Shown here: positions 5,643 to 58,676 of the stretch, one piece after another
How the letters are laid out: each line of letters opens with the position of its first letter
How positions within the stretch are numbered: the first letter of the stretch is position 1
NCBI GenBank assembly: GCA_016938065.1
Contig: JAFGVI010000139.1
Span: 4,747 to 68,746 of the forward strand
Length of the DNA stretch: 64,000 nt
Direction of reading: 5' to 3'
Source: Deltaproteobacteria bacterium
GTDB lineage: Bacteria; Desulfobacterota; Anaeroferrophillalia; Anaeroferrophillales; Tharpellaceae
The notes under the pieces: generated by a model
The model's database searches: none
Seen by the model: only the letters and a program-made list of their open reading frames with translations
What the model was told of the DNA's origin: nothing
Position numbers and translations under genes: made by a program

Positions 5643-5866
5643 ATGATTTAAAAATACAATATATTAAAAACAAGAGCCAAAAAACAAGAGCCGCCGGTAA
5701 TAACCGACGGCTTTATGCAGATTAAACGCCTTATCTTCTCAGAAAAAAACTCAGTCAATAGACGCTCCAGAAGTTATGCAGACCGGGCTGGCCGCAAACA
5801 TCCTATAACATAACCAGCGAATTAGCCACTGTCAAGCTGATGGCCACATATTTTATCTGCCTCACC

Positions 5867-5907
5867 AAAAAAAAGAGTACCGACTCTATCGAGTCGGTAC
5901 TCTTTTT
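5867..5907 (-). terminator. Strong rho-independent terminator downstream of the barrel gene
   Basis: Perfect 12-bp stem GAGTACCGACTC/GAGTCGGTACTC with loop TATC. It is flanked by A8 (a U8 tail on the minus strand) and T5 on the plus strand. Confidence 0.8.
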
Positions 5908-5977
5908 CAATCTGCCAGCACCGTAAAAAAAGCTGGTGCTGCCCTTACAGGATCTTGCCTGCAGGCATTACCTGCGT

Positions 5978-6400
5978 CTAGAACCGGAAGGTTAAGCCGG
6001 CATTGACCAGCAGAAGATCGCCGCTGGTATCGTAAAGATAGGGCTCATCATCACTGTAATCAGTGTATGAGGCATTAAGGTTAAGGGTCAAGCGCTCATT
6101 GAAATCGTAGGAGCAGCCCAGATAATATTCGATCTCGTCAATATCAAGATCACTGTTATCTTCCCATACGGCAAAAGCCAAGGCATGATCGTAACCGAAA
6201 GCCGCCGGCGATGTACCTTCGGTGTAGGCGGCGCTGAGATTATCCATCTCGGCTTTGCCCCAGTTGAAAATAACTCCACCATTGAACTTCAGCTTCTCGG
6301 TGGGAGCAAAATCAGCACTGAACAGCAGAGTGTGAACGTCGGTCTTGTATTCCATATCTGACAATGTGTACCCAAAACTTGGGGACAAATAGGTGCCAGC
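5978..6400 (-). CDS. C-terminal 140 codons of the MtrB/PioB-like outer-membrane beta-barrel (in-frame continuation after an internal TGA)
   Basis: Same frame as 6401..8314. No RBS, signal peptide or ATG of its own (the track start is a TTG). Alternating beta-strand-like sequence ends ...NAGLTFRF-TAG, with a C-terminal Phe beta-signal. Confidence 0.55.
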   Translation of the reverse strand, partial: AGTYLSPSFGYTLSDMEYKTDVHTLLFSADFAPTEKLKFNGGVIFNWGKAEMDNLSAAYTEGTSPAAFGYDHALAFAVWEDNSDLDIDEIEYYLGCSYDFNERLTLNLNASYTDYSDDEPYLYDTSGDLLLVNAGLTFRF

Positions 6401-8314
6401 TCAGCCGCCATAGGCAACCGCCGAGAGAAAAGCCTGATCCTCCATGTCCATATAGTTATAGGCCAGGGTAAAAGTCAGATTGTCGACCGGCGCGAAAAAA
6501 AGATCCGCCCCTAAAGCATACATCTCTTTATCAAAGGAGTTGCCATGTCCCGGCACGTCCATTTTGACCTCTTCGAGATTGTAAAGAAAGTGGCCGCTGA
6601 CCGTAATTTTAGGTGAAATATTATAGGTCGCATGCGCTTTGAACTTATGCACACTCTCGGGCTCTGAAGTCAGATCGAGACTGCGGCTGTTATACATGAC
6701 ATAGTACTCGACCGAATCCGGTTTGGACGGCTGGGGGAGATTTTTAACCGAACAATACCCCGGTGTTGCAGCACAACCTACAGGATCAACATTGGCTCTA
6801 AGCCAGAGCAGCATCGCGTCAGGATCGGCATAGGCAGCCCGCTCATGCACGAAAGGATCATCAATGTCTTCATAAGAGTATTCAAACCGCAGACTCAGAT
6901 CTTTGACTGCGCGACTGTTTAAAGCAATTGAATAGGTATCACTGGTGGTTTTCAACTCAGTATCAACATCTTCAACTTCACGCTCCCAGCCGACCAGCAG
7001 ATTGGTCCGTTTAAAAACTTTGAATTTAAACTCAGCTCCATAGGTATCGGTATCGCGCGAAAGACTCGATTCCCGCTCCCAGGGCCAGCCGTCATGCTCC
7101 TGCGAAAAACCATGCAGACCAAAAAGGGTAGGATCGATAGCCGCCGAATTGGCTCCCTGCGGATCATAACTGGTATCATCGTAACTGATAACCACGTCAT
7201 CAGCATCGAGATTCTCATGGCGATATTTGAACGACATGGTCATGAATGAAACCGGAGCAGAGGTCAAACGCAGAGCATAAGCATCATAATCGTAGCTCGG
7301 ATCATCACTGATCGTCACATCGGCGCCGACAAAATTATCAGTTGCCGTATTGTTATCGATCTCGGAATGAACATAACTGCCGAAAACCGTGGTATTCATC
7401 GCCAGAGCCAACTGGGCTTTGACAATATGTGAATCCTTTTCCGAATCCGGGGTTGAGGAATAGACCAAATCACCTTCATTACCAAAATAGGTCAGCTTGG
7501 TATCCATTGCATTAGCTGTCATATACTGGTTGACCGGCGGTTTCGAATTTTCATCAAAGGTGCGTCGCAGAAAAGTGTAGTCGAGGGTTACCAGACCTAA
7601 GTGAGCCGTGGCCCCAATCGAAAAATCCTGGGTCTCCTCATCAATTTTGTGTTTATCGCCAGCCAGATGGCAGCCACCACACTTGCTCATGGTCCGGGTC
7701 TGTTCATACCCGGTGCGCTGCTCCATCCGATATTTGGCATGAAGCTTGATAAACTCGGCCCCGGGAATGATAAACTCATTATCGGAAACCAGCTCTTCAC
7801 GAACGACATACATATCGTCGCCCCACGAAGTGTTACGCACAACAGCAACATTAGGACCTACCAACTCCGGATGACCTAAAACCGCCTTGTCCGCTGCGGC
7901 CGTTGTAAAAGGATGGGTGGCGTCCATACCTGCCGGAAAAGCGAAATCAGGGTTGACATTGTAGTTAACCAAGTCGTCGTTTTCCAGCCAGTGAAGGAAT
8001 TTCTGATAGCTGTTCTTGGTCCGGAAATAGCGCTTTAGATCCAGATCAAGCTGTCCGCCCAGATCATCCTCATGCAGAAAGTTGACCCCGAAATCATATT
8101 TGATTCCGTTGTGATTACCGTTAATATTCATATCGAAGGTGGCATTGCCACCCTGATCCGCCGTCAGGTACTGCGCCGCACCTTCCCGCGAGTCATCAAT
8201 ATTGACCCCCTGTATACCAATCCCGACGCTGCCCGTGGTCTGTCCCGCCCACGAGAGAGCCGGTACCAGTGCCAGGCAGAGGGCCAGAATCATAAATAGT
8301 GCAATACGTTTCAT
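6401..8314 (-). CDS. MtrB/PioB-like decahaem-associated outer-membrane beta-barrel, N-terminal 637 codons, ending at an in-frame TGA
   Basis: GGAAGGAG RBS 5 nt before the ATG at 8314. Signal peptide MKRIALFMILALCLALVPALSWA. Gly/Asp/Asn/Tyr-rich sequence. The gene starts 19 nt after the decahaem cytochrome gene. It ends ...AVAYGG-TGA without a beta-signal. Confidence 0.65.
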   Translation of the reverse strand: MKRIALFMILALCLALVPALSWAGQTTGSVGIGIQGVNIDDSREGAAQYLTADQGGNATFDMNINGNHNGIKYDFGVNFLHEDDLGGQLDLDLKRYFRTKNSYQKFLHWLENDDLVNYNVNPDFAFPAGMDATHPFTTAAADKAVLGHPELVGPNVAVVRNTSWGDDMYVVREELVSDNEFIIPGAEFIKLHAKYRMEQRTGYEQTRTMSKCGGCHLAGDKHKIDEETQDFSIGATAHLGLVTLDYTFLRRTFDENSKPPVNQYMTANAMDTKLTYFGNEGDLVYSSTPDSEKDSHIVKAQLALAMNTTVFGSYVHSEIDNNTATDNFVGADVTISDDPSYDYDAYALRLTSAPVSFMTMSFKYRHENLDADDVVISYDDTSYDPQGANSAAIDPTLFGLHGFSQEHDGWPWERESSLSRDTDTYGAEFKFKVFKRTNLLVGWEREVEDVDTELKTTSDTYSIALNSRAVKDLSLRFEYSYEDIDDPFVHERAAYADPDAMLLWLRANVDPVGCAATPGYCSVKNLPQPSKPDSVEYYVMYNSRSLDLTSEPESVHKFKAHATYNISPKITVSGHFLYNLEEVKMDVPGHGNSFDKEMYALGADLFFAPVDNLTFTLAYNYMDMEDQAFLSAVAYGG

Positions 8315-8333: not shown

Positions 8334-9356
8334 TTATCTGGTTAAAGCCCGACCCTGTCCGGGGACTGTCTGGGATGGCAGATCGCTGCCGTGAACCTGG
8401 GAATGACACTGCGTACATTTGGTTGCATAAGCCTTAGCCCAGAGAGTTTTATCCGAATAATCATACTGGCTTGCTGAAATCGGATTGCCATAATTATCCG
8501 CGATTTCACCATTGGTTGCTACATCACGACTCCACGTCCGTCCGGCATGAAAATGAGGCTCATGACACTGCAGGCAGAGATAAGGCTCATTGGCTTTCTT
8601 CAGATTATTTGAAACCGTGCCATGAGGATCATGACAGATCATACAGTCATCGGAAACCGGAGAGTGTTCGAAAACAAACGGTCCCTGATAACGGGTATGA
8701 CAATTTAAACAGAGATCGTTAAGGCGCTCATCGGTTTTCAGATTTTTGACCATCGAACCGTGATTGGCATGACAGTCACTGCAGACCATCTTCCCTTCTT
8801 TAACCGGATGGTGTGAAGGATAGTACATTTTTGCCCGTTCCAGCGCATGACACTCGTAACAGAGCTCAGGTTCGGCTTTTTCCAGGGAAGCGGCCACCAC
8901 CGGAGGGCTGTGAATTTTATGACAGCTCAGACAACCGACATCATTCATCGGATGCGCCGTACCGGCCCAATCGAAATGCTCGCCGTCACTGTGGCAACGC
9001 AAACAGACTGCCGAAGCCGTCCCCGGGTCAAGTTTTTCAAATGAAATTACCTGACTCGGATCTTCTGATGCCGTATGCAAGCTCGCAGGTCCGTGACAGG
9101 TTTCGCAACCCTTCATTCCAATCGCCGTCTCCTTAGCCAGAATACGGTCATGGATCGAGCCGCTGAAGGCCGCGACCAAAGTATCATGGCAATCGGCGCA
9201 AGACTCGCTACCGGCAAACTGGGCCCCTTTAACGGGCACCGGTAGTTTGAGAACGCAAGCTCTATGACTGCTCAAAGTCGTACAGGCGGCAAGACTCATG
9301 GCTAACGCCATCAGTACCCCTGCTCCGAGCATAAGCCAATGCTTTTTCATGTTCAT
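8334..9356 (-). CDS. Decahaem c-type cytochrome, DmsE/MtrA-like
   Basis: 340 aa from the ATG at 9356 (AAGGAGAAG RBS upstream). Ten CXXCH motifs. Signal peptide with a lipobox-like LAAC. C-terminal CTQCHSQVHGSDLPSQ. The longer 432-aa track ORF has an implausible N-terminus. Confidence 0.85.
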   Translation of the reverse strand: MNMKKHWLMLGAGVLMALAMSLAACTTLSSHRACVLKLPVPVKGAQFAGSESCADCHDTLVAAFSGSIHDRILAKETAIGMKGCETCHGPASLHTASEDPSQVISFEKLDPGTASAVCLRCHSDGEHFDWAGTAHPMNDVGCLSCHKIHSPPVVAASLEKAEPELCYECHALERAKMYYPSHHPVKEGKMVCSDCHANHGSMVKNLKTDERLNDLCLNCHTRYQGPFVFEHSPVSDDCMICHDPHGTVSNNLKKANEPYLCLQCHEPHFHAGRTWSRDVATNGEIADNYGNPISASQYDYSDKTLWAKAYATKCTQCHSQVHGSDLPSQTVPGQGRALTR

Positions 9357-10070
9357 AACCTCTCTCTTCTCCTTGTTAAAAAACTTTCCTGCCCTGCAAT
9401 CCAGACAGGACCGACAAAAAGCAAACTCTATTGCCGCAAACCACCTCCTTTTCAACTGATTCTTTATTGCAGTTAATCCAATGTTAAGCCTAAAACATCC
9501 ACTTACTGAAAAAAATAAGTTGCCAATGAACAACCCTATCCGCTGGCCGCCGCATTGGTTAACAGCGAACGGGGCCGGTTTATACGACAAAACGGAACCG
9601 CATCCATGCCAACTCAGTATAGAAATCACCAATCGTAATAGTTGATTTAAATGGCACTGTCAATAGTTAAAATTAACTTATCACTAATCTGATTGTGAAA
9701 AAAATACTTTTAAATAATCTTTATATTCATATAATTACAAGGCAAATATGCTATCATGAATATTGAATTATTAGTATAAATTATACATTTCATTCAGGAC
9801 CCAGGCCGCCATAAACACCCTTAATATTACCCTTAAAACATCCCCTTCTAGGAAAAATAAGACGAGCGCAAAACGCTCTCTCAATCTTCTGCGCTGACAA
9901 AATAAGTCAACCTTTCGCTTGTCTTTACCGCTTTTTTTTGCTAAGAAGCCGCCTTTACTTATGATCCGCTTAAAGTGAATATATTTTTGCCCACACCGGC
10001 GGAATATTTTTCACCTTGTCACTGTTTTGAATTTTCACACTCAAAGACTTAATAAAATGAGGAATATTTC

Positions 10071-10940
10071 ATGGGTTTACATCTGATTGTAACCGTAAAA
10101 CAGGTACCTGACACGCACAATGTCTCAGGTAATGCCATGAAAGAGGATGGTACCGTAAACCGCGCCGCGCTGCCCACAATTTTCAACCCCGAAGATCTTA
10201 ACGCCCTTGAGGAAGCCCTGAAAATCAAAGAGCTCACCGGCGGTCGGGTAACCTGTATCTCTATGGGGCCGCCGAATGCGGTTGAAGTTTTGAAAGAGTG
10301 TCTTTACCGGGGGGCCGATGATGTTATCCTGATTTCCGACCGGCGCTTTGCCGGAGCTGACACGCTGGCCACATCCTACGTCCTGAAATGCGCCATTGAA
10401 CGGGTTGGCAGCTATGATCTGATTCTCTGCGGTCGCCAGGCAATCGATGGGGATACGGCCCAGGTCGGCCCCCAGATTGCGGAAAAATTAAAGATAAATC
10501 AGCTGACCTGTGTTGCGGCAGTTACGGCGGTTGATGAAAAATCGATAACCGTTAAACGCTCGGTTGAAGATGGCTACGAGATAGTCAAAAGTCGCTTTCC
10601 CGCACTGCTGACCATCACCGCAGCGGCCAACGAACCCCGTTCCGCCAACGCGAAAAAGGTCATGACCTATAAAAATATCGGCAAGGAGATGTGTAGCCTC
10701 TCTTACGACGAAAGCTATCTCGCGGCTGACGCCTGTGCCATTGTCGACCATATCCGGGAATGGAATGTTGAGGCGATCGCCGCCGATCCTGATCAGTGCG
10801 GTCTGTCAGGGTCGCCCACCAAAGTCAAAAAAATTCAGAGTGTGGTGCTCTCCGCCCGCGAAAGCCGGCAGATTGCCAATAACGATGCCGGGATTGGTGA
10901 ATTAATCCATGAATTGATTGAAGAAAATATTATCGGCTGA
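10071..10940 (+). CDS. etfB: Electron transfer flavoprotein, beta subunit (FixA-like)
   Basis: 289-aa ORF. N-terminus LIVTVKQVPDT and CGRQAIDGDTAQVGPQIAEKL. Followed by etfA. Confidence 0.9.
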   Translation: MGLHLIVTVKQVPDTHNVSGNAMKEDGTVNRAALPTIFNPEDLNALEEALKIKELTGGRVTCISMGPPNAVEVLKECLYRGADDVILISDRRFAGADTLATSYVLKCAIERVGSYDLILCGRQAIDGDTAQVGPQIAEKLKINQLTCVAAVTAVDEKSITVKRSVEDGYEIVKSRFPALLTITAAANEPRSANAKKVMTYKNIGKEMCSLSYDESYLAADACAIVDHIREWNVEAIAADPDQCGLSGSPTKVKKIQSVVLSARESRQIANNDAGIGELIHELIEENIIG

Positions 10941-11006
10941 GAAAGACTTTCCGAAAAATAAAGCAGATCAAGCTTTTACGCTGCCATCAGGAGCTCTTAT
11001 AAGGAC

Positions 11007-12020
11007 ATGGATAGTAAAAAAAACATACTGGTTTTCATTGAAGCCCGCAACCGCAAATTTGCCGAAGTCAGCCTCGAACTGCTCTGCGCCGCCGACCGGC
11101 TGGCCCGTGAACTCGGAGGTCGCGTCGAAGCCGTCGCGCTCGGGTACAACCTTGAAGATGAGCTTAAAACCCTCGGCCGCTATGGTTGTGAAAGGGTCTA
11201 TTATACCAGCGATGCGCGTTTGGCCCATTTCACCTCGGTGCCCTACGCCAAAATGGTCGTCCGCATAATCGAAAAATATCAGCCCGGCATCGTCCTGTTC
11301 GGCGCGACCACCATGGGCCGCGACGTTGCCCCCCGGGTTGCCTCGGCCCTCAAATGCGGCCTTACCGCCGACTGCACTGACTTGAAAATCGGCGAACACC
11401 AGATCAAGGATACTCTCTACCAGAACATCCTGATGCAGATTCGTCCGGCCTTTGGCGGCAATATCATCGCCACCATCGTCTCCCCCGAAAGCGTGCCCAG
11501 CATGGCAACAGTGCGCGAAGGGGTCATGAAGTTGAGCCCGGTCGAAACCGAAAAAAACGTTGAAATTCTACCTGAGCCCTGCAGCCTTGACGAACATGAC
11601 TTTCTTTCCGAGGTGCTGGAGGTGATCCGCGAAGAAAAAAAGGTCAACCTGAAAGCCGCACAGATTATTGTCTCCGCCGGAATGGGCGCCAGTGACCCCG
11701 AGAGCCTGGCTCTGACCAAAGAACTGGCCCGGATCCTGGGCGGAGAGCTGGGCTGCTCCCGGCCGGTTGTCGACTCGGGCATTCTCGACAAGGATCATCA
11801 AGTCGGACAGACCGGCATTACCGTACGCCCGAATCTCTATATCGCCTGCGGCATCTCCGGCCAGATTCAGCATCGGGCCGGCATGGCCGAAGCCAAACGG
11901 ATTATCGCGATCAACAAAGATCCTCAGGCACCGATTTTCGCCCTGGCCCACTACGGCATTGTCGGTGAAGTAAAAGATGTTCTGGGCAAGATGATCAAAG
12001 CCTACAAAACCAAAGCTTAG
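11007..12020 (+). CDS. etfA: Electron transfer flavoprotein, alpha subunit (FixB-like)
   Basis: 337-aa ORF. C-terminal FAD-binding region VSAGMGA...SRPVVDSG...QVGQTG..V.P.LYIACGISGQIQH. Confidence 0.9.
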   Translation: MDSKKNILVFIEARNRKFAEVSLELLCAADRLARELGGRVEAVALGYNLEDELKTLGRYGCERVYYTSDARLAHFTSVPYAKMVVRIIEKYQPGIVLFGATTMGRDVAPRVASALKCGLTADCTDLKIGEHQIKDTLYQNILMQIRPAFGGNIIATIVSPESVPSMATVREGVMKLSPVETEKNVEILPEPCSLDEHDFLSEVLEVIREEKKVNLKAAQIIVSAGMGASDPESLALTKELARILGGELGCSRPVVDSGILDKDHQVGQTGITVRPNLYIACGISGQIQHRAGMAEAKRIIAINKDPQAPIFALAHYGIVGEVKDVLGKMIKAYKTKA

Positions 12021-12030
12021 GAGTTCGATA

Positions 12031-13752
12031 ATGGCCAATTTTTATCGGGATAATGCAGATATTCTTTTTCATATGCACAATCTGGATCTGACCCGGGTTG
12101 TTGATCTGAAAGAAGACGGCTTCAGCAACTCGGACAACTCGCCTTACGCCCCGCAGGATGAGGCCGATGCGCGGGATAATTATGATCGCGTCCTGGCTAT
12201 TGTCGGGGAGATTGCCGGGGATTTTGCCGCCCCCAGAGCCCGTGAGGTCGACGCCGAGGGAGCAACCTTTGCCGATGGAGAAGTAACCTATCCCAAAGGT
12301 ATTCAGGAAACTGTTGCCCGTATTAACCAGGCTGACCTGGCCGGCTTCACCATGCCCCGCAAATATGGCGGCATCAATATGCCGATCACGATCTTTTCCG
12401 CCGCAATCGAGATCATTTCCCGGGCTGATGCCTCCCTGATGCTGGTTTTCGGCCTGCAGGGTTTAAGCGATACGATCTGCAAATTCGGCTCCGAGGAACA
12501 GAAACAGCGCCTTCTGCCCCGCTTTGCCAGTGGCGAAGTCATGGGTTCGATGGCCCTGACCGAACCCGATTCCGGCTCCGACCTGCAATCGGTGATGCTC
12601 AAAGCCCATCAGGATGAAGAGGGCATCTGGCGCCTGAACGGGGTGAAACGCTTCATAACCAACGGCTGCAGCGATATCTCTCTGGTAATGGCGCGCTCGG
12701 AAGAGGGCACCAGCAGTGGCCGGGGGCTCTCACTCTTCATCTACGAGCGCGATCAGGACATGAAGGTGCGACGCATTGAACATAAACTGGGCATTACCGG
12801 CTCACCCACCTGTGAAATCCAGTTTAACAATGCCAAAGCCGAGCTTTTAGGCAAACGTAAACTGGGACTGATTAAATATACCATCTACCTGATGAATGGC
12901 GCCCGCCTGGCGGTCGCCGCCCAATCTGTGGGCATCGCTGAGGCCGCCTATCGTAAAGCTTACGCCTACGCCAATGACCGCTCGCAATTCAAACAGCCGA
13001 TCCGTAATTTCGCCGCCATCTACGAGATGCTGACCGACATGAAAACGATGATTGAGGCCTCTCGTACCCTGGTCTATGAAACCTCCAGAATCGTCGACAT
13101 CAAAGAGGGTCTGGAAGAACGCCTGGAAAAATATCCGCAGCGCGCGGCTGATCTCAATGACGAACTTAAACGTTACACCCGGTTTGCGTCGCTGTTTACA
13201 CCGCTGGCGAAAAGTTTTGCCGCGGAGATGGTCAACAAAGTCTGTTACGACGCCATCCAGATTCACGGCGGGGTCGGCTTTACCAAAGAGTTTGATGTGG
13301 AGCGCCACTATCGGGACGCCCGCATCACCAACATCTACGAAGGCACCACCCAGTTGCAGACGGTTGCGGCCCTGGGCGGTGTTATTGCCGGCGTGGTCTC
13401 TGAACGCCTTAACGAATATGAGGAAAACTTCGATTTTACCGCAGTTGCCGACATTTTTCAAACCGCGCAGAAAATGCGCTCACACTTGGAAATGGCCATC
13501 TCCTTCGTCAAAGAGAAAGGCGACAGCGTATTCCAGGAATTTCACGCCGGCAGACTGGTCAACATGACGACCGATGTCATCAATACCTATTTGCTGTGCC
13601 AGAATGCCCTCCGTTCAGAGCGTAAAAAAACGGTGGCCAGAGTCTATCTCAGCAAAGCGTATCTGCGCGTTAAAGCAAACCTTGATTACATCCTTGCCAA
13701 CGACCATGTTTTAATTGACCTGCATGGTGAAGTCATTGACAAAGAAGAATAA
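12031..13752 (+). CDS. Acyl-CoA dehydrogenase, long form with C-terminal extension
   Basis: 573-aa ORF. ACAD middle-domain signature ALTEPDSGSD and C-terminal QIHGGVGF..E..VERHYRDARITNIYEGT. Immediately follows etfBA. Confidence 0.85.
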   Translation: MANFYRDNADILFHMHNLDLTRVVDLKEDGFSNSDNSPYAPQDEADARDNYDRVLAIVGEIAGDFAAPRAREVDAEGATFADGEVTYPKGIQETVARINQADLAGFTMPRKYGGINMPITIFSAAIEIISRADASLMLVFGLQGLSDTICKFGSEEQKQRLLPRFASGEVMGSMALTEPDSGSDLQSVMLKAHQDEEGIWRLNGVKRFITNGCSDISLVMARSEEGTSSGRGLSLFIYERDQDMKVRRIEHKLGITGSPTCEIQFNNAKAELLGKRKLGLIKYTIYLMNGARLAVAAQSVGIAEAAYRKAYAYANDRSQFKQPIRNFAAIYEMLTDMKTMIEASRTLVYETSRIVDIKEGLEERLEKYPQRAADLNDELKRYTRFASLFTPLAKSFAAEMVNKVCYDAIQIHGGVGFTKEFDVERHYRDARITNIYEGTTQLQTVAALGGVIAGVVSERLNEYEENFDFTAVADIFQTAQKMRSHLEMAISFVKEKGDSVFQEFHAGRLVNMTTDVINTYLLCQNALRSERKKTVARVYLSKAYLRVKANLDYILANDHVLIDLHGEVIDKEE

Positions 13753-19288: not shown

Positions 19289-21004
19289 ATGATGCCGGAA
19301 TCATCCCCGAAAACCCTGTTCATCGCCAGTGACCATGGCGGTTACAGCCTTAAAGAGTTTCTGAAAGAAAATTTAACGGCAGGCTTCGCAACTATTGATT
19401 TAGGCACTGCCTCCGAAGCCTCGGTTGACTATCCACGTTTTGCTCATGCCCTGGCCGATCGCGTAGCCGCCGACCCTGACACTCGGGGTATTCTGATCTG
19501 CGGCACCGGCATCGGCATGTCGATCACCGCCAACCGGCATCGTAATATCCGCGCCGCGCTGGTGCATGACAACTTTACCGCACAGATGGCCAAAGAGCAT
19601 AACAATGCCAACATCCTCGTGCTCGGCGGCCGGGTGCTGGAGCCAAGCGTCGCTCTGGAACTTGTAAAAATCTGGCTGAATGCTCGATTTGAGGGCGGCC
19701 GGCACCAGCAGCGCCTTGATTTAATTGATAAATGCTCCGAGCAGCAAGGCCGCAACGTAGCCGCGCCCTTAAGTCAGGTTGATCCAGAAATCAGTCGCCT
19801 GATCATGCAGGAAACCGAACGTGAAGAGAGCAAGTTGATCATGATTGCCTCGGAGAACTGTGTCAGCCAGGCTGTCCTTGACGCTCAGGGCAGTGTGCTG
19901 ACCAACAAATATGCCGAAGGCTATCCCGGCAAACGCTATTACGGCGGCTGTCAATTTGTCGATCAGGCCGAACAGCTGGCCATTGATCGGGCTCTCGCTC
20001 TTTTTGGAGCCGACCACGCCAACGTTCAGCCCCTGTCTGGCTCCGGAGCCAACATGGCCGTCTATCTGAGTGTGCTGCAGCCGGGTGATAAGATCCTGGG
20101 CATGAATCTCGCCCATGGGGGTCACCTCACCCACGGCGCCACCGTCAGTTTCTCTGGACAGCTCTACCGCTCGACCTTTTACGGCGTCGACCGGAAAACA
20201 GAGCGCCTTGACTATGACGTTATCGAAGATATTGCCCTGCGGGAACGACCGCGCATGATTGTCGCCGGGGCCAGCTCCTACTCCAGAACCCTGGATTTCC
20301 CCCGTTTTCGCGCAATCGCCGATAAAGTCGGCGCCCTGCTCATGGTTGACATCGCCCACATTGCCGGCCTGGTGGTCTCAGAAGCCCATCCTTCTCCCGT
20401 GCCCTATGCCGACTTTGTTACGACAACAACCCATAAAACCCTGCGCGGCCCACGTGGCGGCATGATTCTCTGCCGCCGGGAATTTGCCAAAAAAATCAAC
20501 CAGACGATCTTCCCCGGCATTCAGGGCGGACCTCTGATGCACATCATCGCCGCCAAGGCCGTCGCCTTTAAAGAGGCCATGAGCGAGGAATTTAAAAATG
20601 TTCAGAAACAGACCGTTCTCAATGCCGCCTACCTGGCCGACCGCTTACAGGAAAAGGGCTTGCGCATCGTCTCCGGCGGCACCGACAATCATCTTTTTCT
20701 GATCGACCTGACCAATCTGCCGGTCAACGGCAAAAGGGCGGAAGAAGCTCTTGATAATGCCGGCATTACGGCCAATAAAAACGGCATCCCCTTCGACCCG
20801 CGCAATCCGGCCGACCCCAGCGGCATCCGCATCGGTACCCCGATTGCTTCAACCAGAGGCATGCGGGAGACGGAAATGAAGATCGTTGCCGACTGTATTG
20901 CCGCGGTGCTCCAGAACCCTGAAGATGAAACCGTCAGCAAACAGGTCCGATCAACCATCCGGGAGCTGTGTACGCAATTCCCGGTCTACAGCCACCTGCT
21001 TTGA
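19289..21004 (+). CDS. glyA: Fusion protein: ribose-5-phosphate isomerase B (N-terminal ~150 aa) plus serine hydroxymethyltransferase (C-terminal ~415 aa)
   Basis: Single 571-aa ORF. The RpiB part has LFIASDHGG and [14 protein letters not shown]. The SHMT part has [38 protein letters not shown] and [11 protein letters not shown]. There is no stop or frameshift at the junction. Confidence 0.9.
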
Positions 21005-33684: not shown

Positions 33685-34830
33685 TCAATCCTTGATCCAG
33701 AAAGGTTTGGGCGCCTTTTTAAAGGATGGATCGAGGGCCGGGTTGACGACGGACTCCGATGCAGCCTCGGCCGGGCTCGCTTGCCCGAGGCCCTTGCCAG
33801 CCGGCAATGCCTTTATCACAACCTGTTTGTCAACCTTGCCGACCACCGGTTTGACTCTCGGCTTCCGCCAGAAAGGTATGGGAGCTTTACTGAAAGAATC
33901 AACCTTGACTGCCGGAAGAGCCGAAGCTGCCGGGGCCGGAACCGCCGGCTTCACCTTGCCTGAAGCCTTGTCAATGAGAGAACCCCGAGGTCTCATCTGC
34001 CGCCAGAACGGAATCGGGGCCCGGTCAAAGGAGCTGTCCCGTTTAAGCGCCGGCGCGGCGACCGACTCGGTGACCGCCGCTTCGCTTGCGGTCTTTTTTG
34101 CCGGCAAGAGACCGGCCGAAACCGAGACTGCTACTTTTTTTGCCGCCTTCTGCCATTCAAGGGCGGACTGTTCAAGCTGTTCCAACCGGGTTTGCAGACG
34201 ACTGTTCTCAGCTTCCAGGCCCATGACTTTAGTCGTCAGCAGCGAAATTGCAACTTTACCCTGCTCAACCTTAAGTTCAGCCGCCTTTCTCAAGGGCACA
34301 GAGGAGATCACATAAAACCAGAAAAGGGCCAGCAGCACGAGAACGACAAACATCGAGACAATACCGGAAGAACCGGAAGCGCTATCATCAGCGGGCGCCG
34401 GCGGAGTGTTTTTCATCAAGGATTCACCTTTTTCACTAGGGTTAGGGTCTTCAAGAACATCGTCAGCAAGGACATCGTCAGCAAAACTATTCCCGGCACT
34501 AAGCGCTTCGCCATCCGTCTCAATCAGCCCGGCTGCACCTTCGTCGAACTGGTTTTGTTCTGGAACCTCGGGCACGATGACAACGGCCTCTTCCACACTT
34601 TCCGTCGCCGACCCAGAGCTTATTTCAACCGCTGCCTTACTCTCTTCGCCGGCAGTTTCTTTAACCTGAACCACCTCGACGGCAACCGGGATTTCAATCC
34701 CGGCCCCACTGAAAAAAGCAGCCATCTTCTCCTTGTCAATCGGGGCCGGATCTTTATCTACCAGCTTTTTCCGCCGACTGCGACCGGCCGCGGCTTTGCC
34801 TGATTTAGGATTTTTCTTTGCGGTTGTCAT
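33685..34830 (-). CDS. Hypothetical membrane-anchored coiled-coil protein with three AP-x-PFW repeats (ParA partner candidate)
   Basis: 381 aa. The ATG overlaps the ParA TGA (GTATGACA). It has a Lys/Arg-rich N-terminus, an acidic stretch, one hydrophobic helix (IVSMFVVLVLLALFWFYVISSV), a coiled coil (LEAENSRLQTRLEQLEQSALEWQK), and three SF-x-[KR]-AP-[IK]-PFW motifs, the last at the C-terminus. I recognise no family. Confidence 0.6.
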   Translation of the reverse strand: MTTAKKNPKSGKAAAGRSRRKKLVDKDPAPIDKEKMAAFFSGAGIEIPVAVEVVQVKETAGEESKAAVEISSGSATESVEEAVVIVPEVPEQNQFDEGAAGLIETDGEALSAGNSFADDVLADDVLEDPNPSEKGESLMKNTPPAPADDSASGSSGIVSMFVVLVLLALFWFYVISSVPLRKAAELKVEQGKVAISLLTTKVMGLEAENSRLQTRLEQLEQSALEWQKAAKKVAVSVSAGLLPAKKTASEAAVTESVAAPALKRDSSFDRAPIPFWRQMRPRGSLIDKASGKVKPAVPAPAASALPAVKVDSFSKAPIPFWRKPRVKPVVGKVDKQVVIKALPAGKGLGQASPAEAASESVVNPALDPSFKKAPKPFWIKD

Positions 34831-47941: not shown

Positions 47942-50176
47942 TCATCCCAAAAGTTTTTCAATCTCCTTTATGGAGGAGAGCCGCAAAAGTTTTTGCGCCA
48001 CCGTTTTTGCCTCCGGTAGATTGATCGCGGCACAGGCCTTCTTGATGCGCGGCAGGAAAACCGGGTCGAGACTGAGGTTGCGCACACCGATCCCGAGCAG
48101 AAAAGGCAGATAGATCTCCCGGGAAGCCATTTCACCGCAGATGGAGACCGGAACGTTGTGCCGGCTTGCGCTCTGCATAATCCGCTTAAGTGTCCGCAGG
48201 ACTGCGGGATGGTGGGGCACATAGAATGAGGCGACTTTTTCATTGGTGCGATCAACCGCAAGCAGGTACTGAATCAGATCATTGGTCCCGATCGAAAAAA
48301 AATCAGCTTCCCCGGCGAGATCGTCAAGGATGTCGACAACGGCGGGAATTTCAACCATAATTCCGATTTTCGGCGCCTGACAGAACTTTTCCCCCTCAGC
48401 TTTCAGCTCCTGCTGACAATCATACAATACCTGTCGGGCCTCAAGGAACTCCTCCAGAGACGACACCATCGGAAACATGATGCGCAAATCACTCTCAGCA
48501 CAAGCCCGCATAACCGCCCGTAATTGACGGGCAAAGATATCCTTATGGCCGAGTGAGAATCTGATTGAGCGCATCCCCATAAAGGGATTCTCCTCTTTTT
48601 CGTGATGGTAGTAGGAGAGTACTTTGTCGCCGCCGATATCAAGCGTCCTGAAAACCAGTGGCTTACCCGGCATTCCGGCGGCAAGGCGCTGGTAGACCAG
48701 AAACTGCTCCGCTTCCGAAGGAAAATCACTGCGCACTAAAAATGGAATCTCACTCCGATAAAGACCGATCCCTTGCGCCCGATAACGATTGGCCATTTTA
48801 AGATCAGAGAGGAGATTAATATTAGAATAGAGGAATACTTTTTCCCCATCACGGGTCATCGTCAGCTCGGCAATTTCGGCCTCATCAATCTCTACCTCCT
48901 GCTGCTTCTTCGTGAAAATCTCAATTACAGAGGGTGCCGGATTGACATAGACATTACCAATCGTCGCATCAAGCAGAACAAAGCTGTTGCGATCCAGAGC
49001 CAGCAGTTGGGGTTCATCGGCTATTACCAGCGGGATGCCCAAAGAACGGGCCAGAAGAGCAACATGCGATGTCACCCCGCCACTAACCAGGACAATCCCT
49101 AAGATTTTCTCATGGCTCAATTTAAGAATATCTGAAGGCAGAAGCTGATCGGCAATCACCACCTTATCACCGAGATCACCAAGGTCATCTTGGGGACCTG
49201 ACAGATTGCGCAGAAGGCGAAGGGCAAGATCTCTGACATCATCGGCTTTTTCCCTGATATAGTGATCTTCGACCCTGGAAAAATGACTTATATAAAAATC
49301 TGCGGTCTCCACAATGGCAGCCCCGGGAGAGCTTCCCTGAGCAATCAGAGTTTCAATTTTCGCAAGCAGGCTACTGTCTTTCAGCATCAGCAGATGGGCG
49401 CTGAAAATCAGTGAGGCGACATCTGAAAGCTGGGCCTCAACCTCGGACTGAATCATTTCAAGCTGAACTTCCGTCTTTTTGACGCATTCATGAAAATCGT
49501 TAAGGGTTAATCCCTTTAACGGCATTTCCGCAAGATATTCGCTTAAATCCTGATAGCGGCGCAGCACCAGGGCCCGACCTTTAACCAGCCCTTGAGAGGC
49601 ACTCTGGCCGTGCACCAATGCCAGCTCAATCTTCGGTTTGCTAATATTGACAGCATCAGACCGTCTCTCGATATGGCCCAGAAGCCTGACATTTTCAATG
49701 ATATTAGCCAACTGTGAGGCAATCGTCTGGGTCACCGTAACTTCCGCTTGAGAAAATGGTTTTTCCTCCTCTCTCTGCAGAACGATTACCCCGATCTTAT
49801 TAATACCCCGTAAAATCGGAACCGCCATGAAGGCTTCGTAGAGCTCTTCATTGAGCCCGCCAAAAAACTTATAGGCCGGATGCAGGCTGGCCTTGGCCGC
49901 GACAATCGTTCTCTTTTCGGCCAGAGCCGTACCCGTCAGTCCCTGGCCCTCCAGCATCCGCACCACTCCCACAGCGCCCGCTTTCAAACCATGAGTTGCC
50001 TTGAGCCTGAGCTCCCGCTGCTCTTCTTCATAGAGATAGAGCGAACAGACCGTGGTCTGCATATGACCCGCCACCATATCGACCAGTTTCGCCAAGAAAA
50101 GATCGATACTTTGACTTTCATTGAAGATCCAGTTCAGTTCTGACAAATCACATAATAACTCTAGATGGTTCTGCAC
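47942..50176 (-). CDS. ptsP: Phosphoenolpyruvate-protein phosphotransferase PtsP (EI-Ntr, GAF-EI)
   Basis: 744 aa. N-terminal GAF. EI phosphohistidine region GGVTSHVALLARSLGIP. PEP-utilising C-terminus IGTNDLIQY. Confidence 0.9.
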   Translation of the reverse strand: MQNHLELLCDLSELNWIFNESQSIDLFLAKLVDMVAGHMQTTVCSLYLYEEEQRELRLKATHGLKAGAVGVVRMLEGQGLTGTALAEKRTIVAAKASLHPAYKFFGGLNEELYEAFMAVPILRGINKIGVIVLQREEEKPFSQAEVTVTQTIASQLANIIENVRLLGHIERRSDAVNISKPKIELALVHGQSASQGLVKGRALVLRRYQDLSEYLAEMPLKGLTLNDFHECVKKTEVQLEMIQSEVEAQLSDVASLIFSAHLLMLKDSSLLAKIETLIAQGSSPGAAIVETADFYISHFSRVEDHYIREKADDVRDLALRLLRNLSGPQDDLGDLGDKVVIADQLLPSDILKLSHEKILGIVLVSGGVTSHVALLARSLGIPLVIADEPQLLALDRNSFVLLDATIGNVYVNPAPSVIEIFTKKQQEVEIDEAEIAELTMTRDGEKVFLYSNINLLSDLKMANRYRAQGIGLYRSEIPFLVRSDFPSEAEQFLVYQRLAAGMPGKPLVFRTLDIGGDKVLSYYHHEKEENPFMGMRSIRFSLGHKDIFARQLRAVMRACAESDLRIMFPMVSSLEEFLEARQVLYDCQQELKAEGEKFCQAPKIGIMVEIPAVVDILDDLAGEADFFSIGTNDLIQYLLAVDRTNEKVASFYVPHHPAVLRTLKRIMQSASRHNVPVSICGEMASREIYLPFLLGIGVRNLSLDPVFLPRIKKACAAINLPEAKTVAQKLLRLSSIKEIEKLLG

Positions 50177-57539: not shown

Positions 57540-58676
57540 TCAGGTTCGAAGAATAAAGCCTGCCAAAAGTCGAGCCCCGAACCAGGCCCCGGGCAGCAAA
57601 CCAGCCAAAAAAAAGAAACTCTGCAGAGCCAGAATCGGCAGACCGCCTAGCAGATGCCAAACGTTGCAGCCTGGGGCCATACGCGAAGCCAGCCCCATTA
57701 TAATACCTCCGACCAGAACACTGCCGTATTGACGTAACGGCAGACGCCAGCGCAAGCTAAACTCTCCCAGCCTAATGGCGGAAAAGAGTGAACCAAGAAT
57801 AATGCCGACAATCACTGGTCCCTGAATATAAGCTATCGCATCAAGCCCCGGAGCACCGCCACCCACGAGCTGCAGATCGAAGCGGCTCAGCCTTACATTC
57901 AAAGGCTGACCCTGAAAATAAACCAGAGCGGCAAAATGCTGAGGCCAGAGAAAACGCTCGAAAAAACCTGCAATTTTGGCGTAAGTGGTCGTAATCTCCA
58001 TCGGCATGCCGACAATACAGTAACTGCATAAATTTATCAACGCTAACCCTGTCGCGGCGCGCCATGGTTGCAGATAGCCGTCGGCATAAGCCTGGCGCAG
58101 CCAGAGACCCCGCTGATGCCATTTCCAGAAAAAAAACATACTGACGATTACGGTCGGCAGAACAATAACATACGGATCACACCCGATCAGCTGCGGCAAG
58201 GTAACGATTCCCGGGAAAAGAGCTGTATTTCTGGCAAAAACTGACCATGAGGGATGTATCTCAGCATAAAGTCCACTGCCGATTATAAGTCCGGAAAATG
58301 CGGTTAAACTCAAGAGGCTGCCGGCTCCCATTTTATAAAGGGTGCCGACGACGCAACCGCCAGCCAGAACCATGCCCAGACCGAAAAGAAAACCACCGAT
58401 TATATTAGAAAAAGATAGTGAGCCCAGCAGGGGGAAAGGATAAAAAGGGAGCAGATTCAGGAAACGTGCACCCTCGAACAGAACCATGGCAGAAACAATC
58501 AACAGCATCAGGGTTCTGAGCATAAAGGTTGCGCGAAAAAGAAAAAGATCACGAAACATGCCGGCCATGCAGTAGTCCGATCGGTGCATGATAAAACCAG
58601 CACTGAAACCGATAATCAGGCAAGTTCCAGCTAAAAAAATGACCTCGTAAGGCATAGCATTACCGAATATGATCAT
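57540..58676 (-). CDS. YeeE/YedE family inner-membrane transporter (thiosulfate/sulfur- or selenium-compound uptake)
   Basis: 378 aa polytopic protein. Two repeated halves each contain Cys in a G-x-C motif (SDYCMAGMF, AGGCVVGTLYK, APGCNVWHLLGG), typical of the family. Confidence 0.8.
   Translation of the reverse strand: MIIFGNAMPYEVIFLAGTCLIIGFSAGFIMHRSDYCMAGMFRDLFLFRATFMLRTLMLLIVSAMVLFEGARFLNLLPFYPFPLLGSLSFSNIIGGFLFGLGMVLAGGCVVGTLYKMGAGSLLSLTAFSGLIIGSGLYAEIHPSWSVFARNTALFPGIVTLPQLIGCDPYVIVLPTVIVSMFFFWKWHQRGLWLRQAYADGYLQPWRAATGLALINLCSYCIVGMPMEITTTYAKIAGFFERFLWPQHFAALVYFQGQPLNVRLSRFDLQLVGGGAPGLDAIAYIQGPVIVGIILGSLFSAIRLGEFSLRWRLPLRQYGSVLVGGIIMGLASRMAPGCNVWHLLGGLPILALQSFFFLAGLLPGAWFGARLLAGFILRT

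Follow-up and report, generated by a model that had tools for sequence, protein, structure and literature searches.

Outer-membrane barrels of the MtrB/PioB type that belong to the GSU2204 family have been described in two separate literatures. Two selenoproteome reviews list the family as a selenoprotein and MtrB/PioB-type barrel, the later of the two naming it "GSU2204 family CXXCH-containing protein" (NF041027), and both catalogue it without a function, their tables giving no motif that flanks the selenocysteine (Sec) (PMC9312934, PMC13188914). The main text of the 2008 paper cited by review for the family makes no mention of it (PMC2398784). In the electron-transfer literature GSU2203 is known as OmcK and GSU2204 as OmcL, and both are upregulated in Geobacter sulfurreducens on hematite or magnetite (PMC4070692). 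In the sulfate-reducing partners of methane-oxidising archaea, OmcKL homologues have been proposed to form a porin-cytochrome conduit through which electrons pass between species, and OmcK and OmcL are reported to be highly expressed in methane-oxidising consortia, with no mention of selenocysteine in that work (PMC10553843). Here we describe a divergent, newly found member of this known GSU2204 (OmcL) family, encoded on a 64,000-nucleotide stretch (hereafter the window) of contig JAFGVI010000139.1 from the Deltaproteobacteria assembly GCA_016938065.1. The gene is crossed by an in-frame TGA (6403..6401) which we read, with high confidence, as a selenocysteine codon, because the UGA is conserved among relatives, a hairpin directly downstream of it covaries, uninterrupted homologues have Cys at the same position and the protein is a member of a family catalogued as selenoprotein. 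The preliminary description of this DNA had listed a nonsense mutation, an assembly or sequencing error and recoding as possible explanations for the TGA without choosing between them; the comparative data presented here strongly support selenocysteine recoding.

The features on which this reading depends are the following.

5978..8314, minus strand: complete OmcL/GSU2204-family MtrB/PioB-type outer-membrane barrel gene, from translation, Pfam, NCBIfam and a structural match
8246..8314, minus strand: signal peptide MKRIALFMILALCLALVPALSWA, read from the sequence, with a putative cleavage site
6401..6403, minus strand: in-frame UGA, very probably read as selenocysteine (residue 638), from the homologous TGA in relatives and the alignment with Cys
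6371..6383, minus strand: conserved hairpin core, stem CCCAA/UUGGG with apical loop GUU (6378..6376), from comparison and covariation
6358..6399, minus strand: full predicted stem-loop including the lower stem CUGGCA/UGUCAG, minimum free energy (MFE) -13.4 kcal/mol
5981..6400, minus strand: C-terminal 140 residues, ending ...NAGLTFRF, predicted to form the last five barrel strands by our own strand assignment

The open reading frame (ORF) of the barrel starts at ATG 8314, with GGAGG 7 nt 5' of it, runs through 637 codons to the TGA and continues for 140 sense codons to a TAG (5980..5978), giving 778 codons including the TGA. The minus strand around the stop reads ...GCC TAT GGC GGC TGA GCT GGC ACC TAT TTG TCC CCA AGT TTT GGG..., in agreement with the position and sequence reported previously, and the earlier proposal that the two ORFs are a single 778-codon MtrB/PioB-type barrel gene is correct. 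The upstream piece ends in ...AFLSAVAYGG directly before the TGA and, as had been pointed out, has no C-terminal beta-signal; the aromatic C-terminal assembly signal ...NAGLTFRF is gained only if the UGA is read through. If the UGA is Sec, the residues across the junction are ...AVAYGG-U-AGTYLSPSFGYTLSDMEYK, and the tail frame closes with ...LLLVNAGLTFRF before the TAG. The tail had been said to have no ribosome-binding site, ATG or signal peptide. It does indeed have no signal peptide and no Shine-Dalgarno sequence, but it contains an internal ATG (6355..6353, 16 codons past the TGA) as well as a TTG (6388), neither of them preceded by a Shine-Dalgarno sequence, and gene callers start there to render a 125-aa "hypothetical protein". 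Between the UGA and the TAG the sole terminator-like match is weak (3 G-C pairs, 6152..6130). An alternative genetic code had been excluded in the preliminary description and our count agrees with this: TGA is the stop of 23 of the 46 longest non-overlapping ORFs in the window, including the fabD, nrdR, lpxK and ParA-like genes, and as an ordinary stop for half of the window's genes it therefore indicates the standard code.

The related loci compared have approximately 25-83% protein identity. A protein search with the joined sequence (upstream piece plus tail) recovered 35 close relatives (51-83% identity; 632-656 aa), all of which stop at ...YGG, and three relatives at 26% identity stop at ...WYHG. 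In each of the 13 genome loci with 51-83% identity, a TGA stands right after ...YGG at the identical alignment position and is followed in frame by approximately 140 codons, which are conserved as protein and end with a final F. The TGA is also present in four distant loci (L018, L019, L021 and L022; approximately 26% identity), in the first three of which the tail is in frame and conserved, while the contig of L022 ends just past the TGA. Approximately 50 metagenome loci have the same TGA followed by an in-frame, conserved tail, with the final F where enough sequence was recovered, so that a TAA, a TAG, a sense codon, a change of frame or a spacer was never seen at this site in approximately 70 loci overall. 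When 1.84 billion cluster representatives were searched with a profile, at least approximately 70 of the best 150 ended exactly at the last profile position. Searching with the tail returned only fragments of 117-130 aa (started at the internal ATG) or parts of fused Cys-type proteins, the fragments from close relatives being 72-88% identical and two more distant ones 51-53%. The 15 residues between the TGA and the internal ATG, which the fragments leave out, are likewise conserved as protein. Uncultured Thermodesulfobacteriota, Candidatus Tharpella and Anaeroferrophillacea-type metagenome-assembled genomes are the sources of the closest relatives.

This conservation bears directly on two of the explanations that had been put forward. 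A nonsense mutation (e.g. TGG to TGA), the one listed first, would have made the barrel a pseudogene in this organism, for which one base change suffices and with which the missing assembly signal of the upstream piece alone would fit. The same TGA occurs, however, in every relative down to approximately 25% identity, the 140 downstream codons are under protein constraint (72-88% identity with many synonymous changes), and the related loci differ throughout, so they are not assemblies of one molecule. Since the window derives from an assembly of an uncultured organism, the TGA could also have been created by a sequencing or assembly error, but the same codon recurs in assemblies that many studies produced independently and that were taken from several sources (NCBI, JGI, ENA and Logan), and the glycine codons flanking it (GGC at -2, -1 and +2) are almost invariant. 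The presence of the TGA in every relative examined therefore excludes both a private nonsense mutation, which we consider to have practically no chance of being correct, and an assembly error, the probability of which is just as negligible.

Further evidence comes from the minority of cluster representatives that are uninterrupted (720-810 aa). The position of the TGA, in an alignment made with MAFFT, is occupied by Cys in P0118, P0174, P0103 and P0106, by Ser in P0189 and P0195, and by Gly in P0161, P0117 and P0134, with Trp in none of the uninterrupted homologues aligned. The suggestion that the TGA arose from TGG, with Trp as the residue expected at this site, was thus wrong, because no orthologue has Trp there. 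Selenoprotein families are typically recognised by just such a pairing of Cys in some members with an in-frame UGA in others. For two of the Cys homologues the DNA was available (P0118 and P0103), and these loci have the codons TGC and TGT, no GUU hairpin and the same upstream decahaem gene.

The selenocysteine reading is also supported by the RNA downstream of the UGA. From the UGA to the GUU loop there are 22 nt in the window and 20-23 nt across loci. A hairpin is predicted in each of the 59 distinct usable sequences; its loop is GUU, or GUA in some, and begins at position 24-27 when the U of the UGA is counted as the first. The stems vary and still pair (CCCCAA/UUGGGG, GACCCA/UGGGUC, GAGCCA/UGGCUC, GGGCCA/UGGCUC, GGACCA/UGGUUC and GUCCCA/UGGGAC), the encoded residues shifting along with them (PSFG, TQFG, SQFG), and the upper stem reaches up to 9 bp in relatives. 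Covariation was assessed on 35 distinct sequences in a loop-anchored alignment against 500 shuffles: pairing was found in 87% of cells compared to 63.5% in the shuffles, none of which (0/500) was as high, the covariation score was 0.541 compared to 0.164, and seven of nine pairs were changed on both sides. When the partner strand was slid as a control, pairing fell to 22-57%. Among 18 close relatives, codons +6 to +11 (TCC CCA AGT TTT GGG GTC) show almost no synonymous variation, as opposed to 1.2-1.9 bits at Ala, Thr, Ser and Leu codons elsewhere. The apical CCCAA-GUU-UUGGG noticed earlier, 22 nt from the UGA, is the part of the SECIS-like element that is conserved and covaries, whereas the outer stem UAUUUG/CAGAUA proposed with it is not kept in relatives. 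For the lower stem CUGGCA/UGUCAG comparative support is weak: compensating changes keep it paired in L005 and L008, but pairing is lost in L007 and L013 and the distant subfamily does not have this stem.

The published consensus for the bacterial selenocysteine insertion sequence (bSECIS) calls for a loop of 3-9 nt, an upper stem of 4-16 bp, a G in the first two loop positions, a distance of 16-37 nt from the UGA and an MFE of -7.5 kcal/mol or lower (PMC13188914). The window hairpin lies within every one of these limits (loop GUU, 5-bp stem, 22 nt, -13.4 kcal/mol), and together with the covariation this revises the earlier opinion that its geometry was not compelling. Like the Escherichia coli fdhF-type SECIS and the bSECIS model, it is a stem-loop in the coding region directly past the UGA, with a small loop starting G-U and a spacing within 16-37 nt; it differs from the E. 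coli SECIS in having no sequence similarity to it, in that the conserved part is only a stem of 5-9 bp with a loop of 3 nt (or 5 nt), and in that a bulged U is not evident.

A conserved stop could in principle function without Sec, either through read-through by a standard tRNA (a near-cognate inserting Trp, Cys or Arg) or through true termination with separate translation of the tail, in which case a 637-residue product would be completed in trans by a tail of 125-140 residues. The hairpin could in principle stimulate read-through, gene callers do use the ATG 16 codons past the TGA, and Sec machinery was not found in the window or the fetched flanks. If the gene were split, however, TAA or TAG could replace the TGA, and a shifted frame or a spacer would do no harm, yet the approximately 70 loci all have TGA, in frame and with zero spacer. 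The internal ATG lacks a Shine-Dalgarno sequence and the tail a signal peptide, and the 15 residues ahead of that ATG show protein-level conservation. Fused homologues have Cys at the site, the classic Sec/Cys pattern, the hairpin fits the SelB-type consensus and the family is already curated as a selenoprotein (NF041027). We therefore regard a stop that operates without Sec as very improbable, and selenocysteine as the preferred reading of the UGA.

Several observations nevertheless weigh against this reading. Taken alone, the window hairpin is unremarkable (z = -1.44, with 22 of 200 shuffles folding as well), and a permissive Rfam scan of positions 5900-6500 returned no SECIS or other credible family, only chance matches with E > 1. 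The case for recoding rests on the comparison with relatives, where it goes far beyond chance. The alignment used for that comparison was anchored on the loop and is thereby biased towards pairing. The hairpin also overlaps conserved codons (PSFG/TQFG), so its conservation could be partly at the protein level, although the synonymous-site data and the compensatory amino-acid changes speak against this. Neither selA, selB, selD nor a tRNA-Sec was found in the 64-kb window or the fetched flanks, the window containing no tRNA at all and no SelA, SelB or SelD domain among the 41 ORFs scanned, and no tRNA was found in 46 related loci, because of which the capacity of the organism for Sec is assumed from its lineage. 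In the literature searched, experimental selenium incorporation is reported for no member of the family. The placement of the Sec residue in the barrel, discussed below, comes from a low-confidence partial model (mean pLDDT 59) combined with topology rules and is correspondingly tentative.

If the UGA is decoded as Sec, expression of the locus may be envisaged as follows. A two-gene mRNA would encode the decahaem cytochrome and then the barrel. By analogy with established bacterial Sec decoding, SelB carrying Sec-tRNA(Sec) would bind the hairpin 22 nt past the UGA and insert Sec at codon 638. The readthrough product would be a 778-residue precursor with a signal peptide, which would be exported and assembled by the beta-barrel assembly machinery (BAM) via its C-terminal ...LTFRF, so that a complete barrel would be made only by read-through. 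This barrel would sheathe the decahaem partner to give a two-component porin-cytochrome conduit.

The assignment of the gene to its family is clear from profile matches. Pfam PF11854 (MtrB_PioB) matches the upstream piece with 43.1 bits (cut-off 23), and NCBIfam NF041027, "GSU2204 family CXXCH-containing (seleno)protein" with the model name GSU2204_Se_pt_1, matches residues 10-637 over model positions 1-580 of 580 with 542.9 bits (cut-off 350), the match stopping exactly at the TGA (residue 637, with the UGA as codon 638). A structural model of the N-terminal 637 residues is a large barrel of low confidence (mean predicted local distance difference test, pLDDT, 59), the best match of which in the PDB is MtrB (6R2Q chain B; E = 2.6e-10, template-modelling score 0.56); a profile search of solved structures by sequence gave no match. 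The remaining features of the locus are listed here.

7667..7681, minus strand: CGGCH (CXXCH motif), residues 212-216, invariant across the family
8334..9356, minus strand: partner decahaem c-type cytochrome of the OmcK/GSU2203 family, 340 aa, with 10 CXXCH motifs and the lipobox LAAC
5689..5712, minus strand: terminator-like hairpin of 10 pairs followed by a T run, lying past the TAG and probably closing the two-gene operon

Within the barrel, K211, C212, C215 and H216 are invariant in both protein alignments (A1 and A2), and the CXXCH, a motif of the haem-attachment type which sits in a low-confidence connection between predicted strands 189-205 and 221-239, is kept also in the distant Cys-, Ser- and Gly-type homologues. 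Because homologues with Ser or Gly in place of Sec keep the CXXCH without exception, the Sec is a feature of a subfamily and not an obligate partner of that motif. From the partial model, the alternation of short turns and long loops, and our own strand assignment of the tail, the complete barrel is predicted to be MtrB-like with approximately 26 strands. Sec638 would then lie between predicted strands 21 and 22 and the CXXCH between strands 7 and 8, both probably on the long-loop side, presumably the extracellular one, at roughly opposite points of the barrel's circumference. Our best guess is that Sec638, near the outer mouth of the conduit, would be redox-active or would contact a metal or a haem. 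A more specific proposal appears unlikely on balance: in a two-component conduit lacking a separate surface cytochrome, Sec on the outward-facing side would be the terminal contact of the electron path, possibly together with a haem at the barrel's own CXXCH. Were it true, a selenol, either redox-active or ligating a metal or haem, would pass electrons to or from minerals or partner cells, which would mean that a barrel protein carries out selenium chemistry at or in the outer membrane of bacteria, and would make synthesis of the conduit dependent on selenium supply.

The partner cytochrome scores 422.4 bits against NF041028 (cut-off 325) and 243 bits against TIGR03508, the DmsE-family decahaem model (cut-off 192). 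In the ORF list it starts at TTG 9632 (432 aa, 8334..9632), and the family match begins only at residue 109; a strong ribosome-binding site stands in front of ATG 9356, which is likely to be the true start instead of TTG 9632. With the lipobox LAAC in its 340-aa product, the cytochrome looks like a lipoprotein. The same pairing of a GSU2203-family cytochrome with the barrel is present in L018-L023, L081 and L082. The operon consists of cytochrome and barrel only, with no MtrC/OmcA-type gene for an extracellular decahaem cytochrome adjacent to it, and its neighbours are etfB (divergent) and a gene for a DUF2520 Rossmann-like protein. The locus is thus a two-gene porin-cytochrome module like PioAB, MtoAB and OmcKL.

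Compared to the GSU2204 family as catalogued (NF041027), the window protein shares a score above the cut-off of the hidden Markov model in a match that ends at the UGA, the invariant CXXCH, the GSU2203 decahaem gene upstream, the Sec/Cys pair at the same position and a downstream hairpin with a GU[UA] loop. It differs in belonging to a divergent ...AYGG-U-AG... subfamily which is only approximately 26% identical to the WYHG-U-AN subfamily. In the latter, more distant subfamily (...C-x-G-W-Y-[HD]-G-U-A...), extra conserved Cys residues are found 7 positions before and 12-13 after the Sec (L018, L019, L031, L035 and most of the metagenome loci L031-L077), whereas the subfamily of the window has no extra Cys at -7 and +12/13, suggesting different local chemistry in the two subfamilies. 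A divergent LysR-type regulator adjoins the cytochrome-barrel pair in L018, L019-L021, L022 and L023 and is absent beside the pair in the window, the divergent neighbour of which is instead an electron-transfer flavoprotein operon (10071..13752) with etfB and etfA and, after them, an acyl-CoA dehydrogenase gene.

With MtrB of the Shewanella MtrCAB complex (6R2Q chain B), the best structural match, the window protein has in common a large outer-membrane barrel encoded beside a decahaem cytochrome of the MtrA/DmsE type and the PF11854 domain, and with PioAB and MtoAB the two-gene layout. Identity to MtrB in the structural alignment is only 11%, with no match to any solved structure at the sequence level, and unlike MtrCAB the window locus has no adjacent gene for an MtrC-like extracellular cytochrome. 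The barrel also differs from MtrB, PioB and MtoB in having a CXXCH and a selenocysteine, and its partner cytochrome in having a lipobox; we know of no description of either the CXXCH or selenocysteine for those three proteins. By description, ExtKL of the Geobacter ExtHIJKL porin-cytochrome cluster (NF040886; PMC5877670) is likewise an electron-conduit component catalogued as a selenoprotein in the same bacterial group, but there the Sec is in a multihaem cytochrome and not in a barrel.

Conservation of Sec across many lineages in an outer-membrane barrel implies that the residue has a particular chemical function and that the conduit needs selenium. The value of the present analysis lies mainly in correct annotation and in linking the selenoprotein catalogue to the OmcKL literature, to which it adds a divergent member and no mechanism. 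Every database cluster found splits the gene in two. The larger product, of approximately 635 aa, has no name or is called MtrB/PioB or "opacity protein-like surface antigen"; the 125-aa remainder is a "hypothetical protein" or "predicted porin". This splitting is a systematic annotation error for this selenoprotein. Because public calls divide the gene into a 637-aa "MtrB/PioB" and a 125-aa "hypothetical protein", anyone surveying sediment and seep bacteria for electron-transfer genes meets a truncated barrel, which may be taken for a broken one.

Some minor observations were made elsewhere in the window. One further long in-frame TGA junction exists, and no more (47942..47944, minus strand; 753 + 100 codons); it was considered as a second selenoprotein and rejected, as a PtsP-like gene with a GAF domain ends normally at this TGA and the apparent continuation runs across a thioesterase gene encoded on the other strand. 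The YeeE/YedE sulphur-transport family includes selenocysteine forms elsewhere (GUxSG motif); the member in the window (57540..58676, minus strand) is of the Cys form (GGCVVG, PGCNVW) and has a normal end. Beside the gene for the ParA-like ATPase lies a 381-aa ORF (33685..34830, minus strand) for which Pfam gives no match at E up to 1e-5. A 571-aa ORF (19289..21004, plus strand) combines a ribose-5-phosphate isomerase B domain (residues 11-146) with a complete serine hydroxymethyltransferase domain (residues 161-537), and represents either a genuine fusion of RpiB and GlyA or two genes that share a frame and are not separated by a stop.

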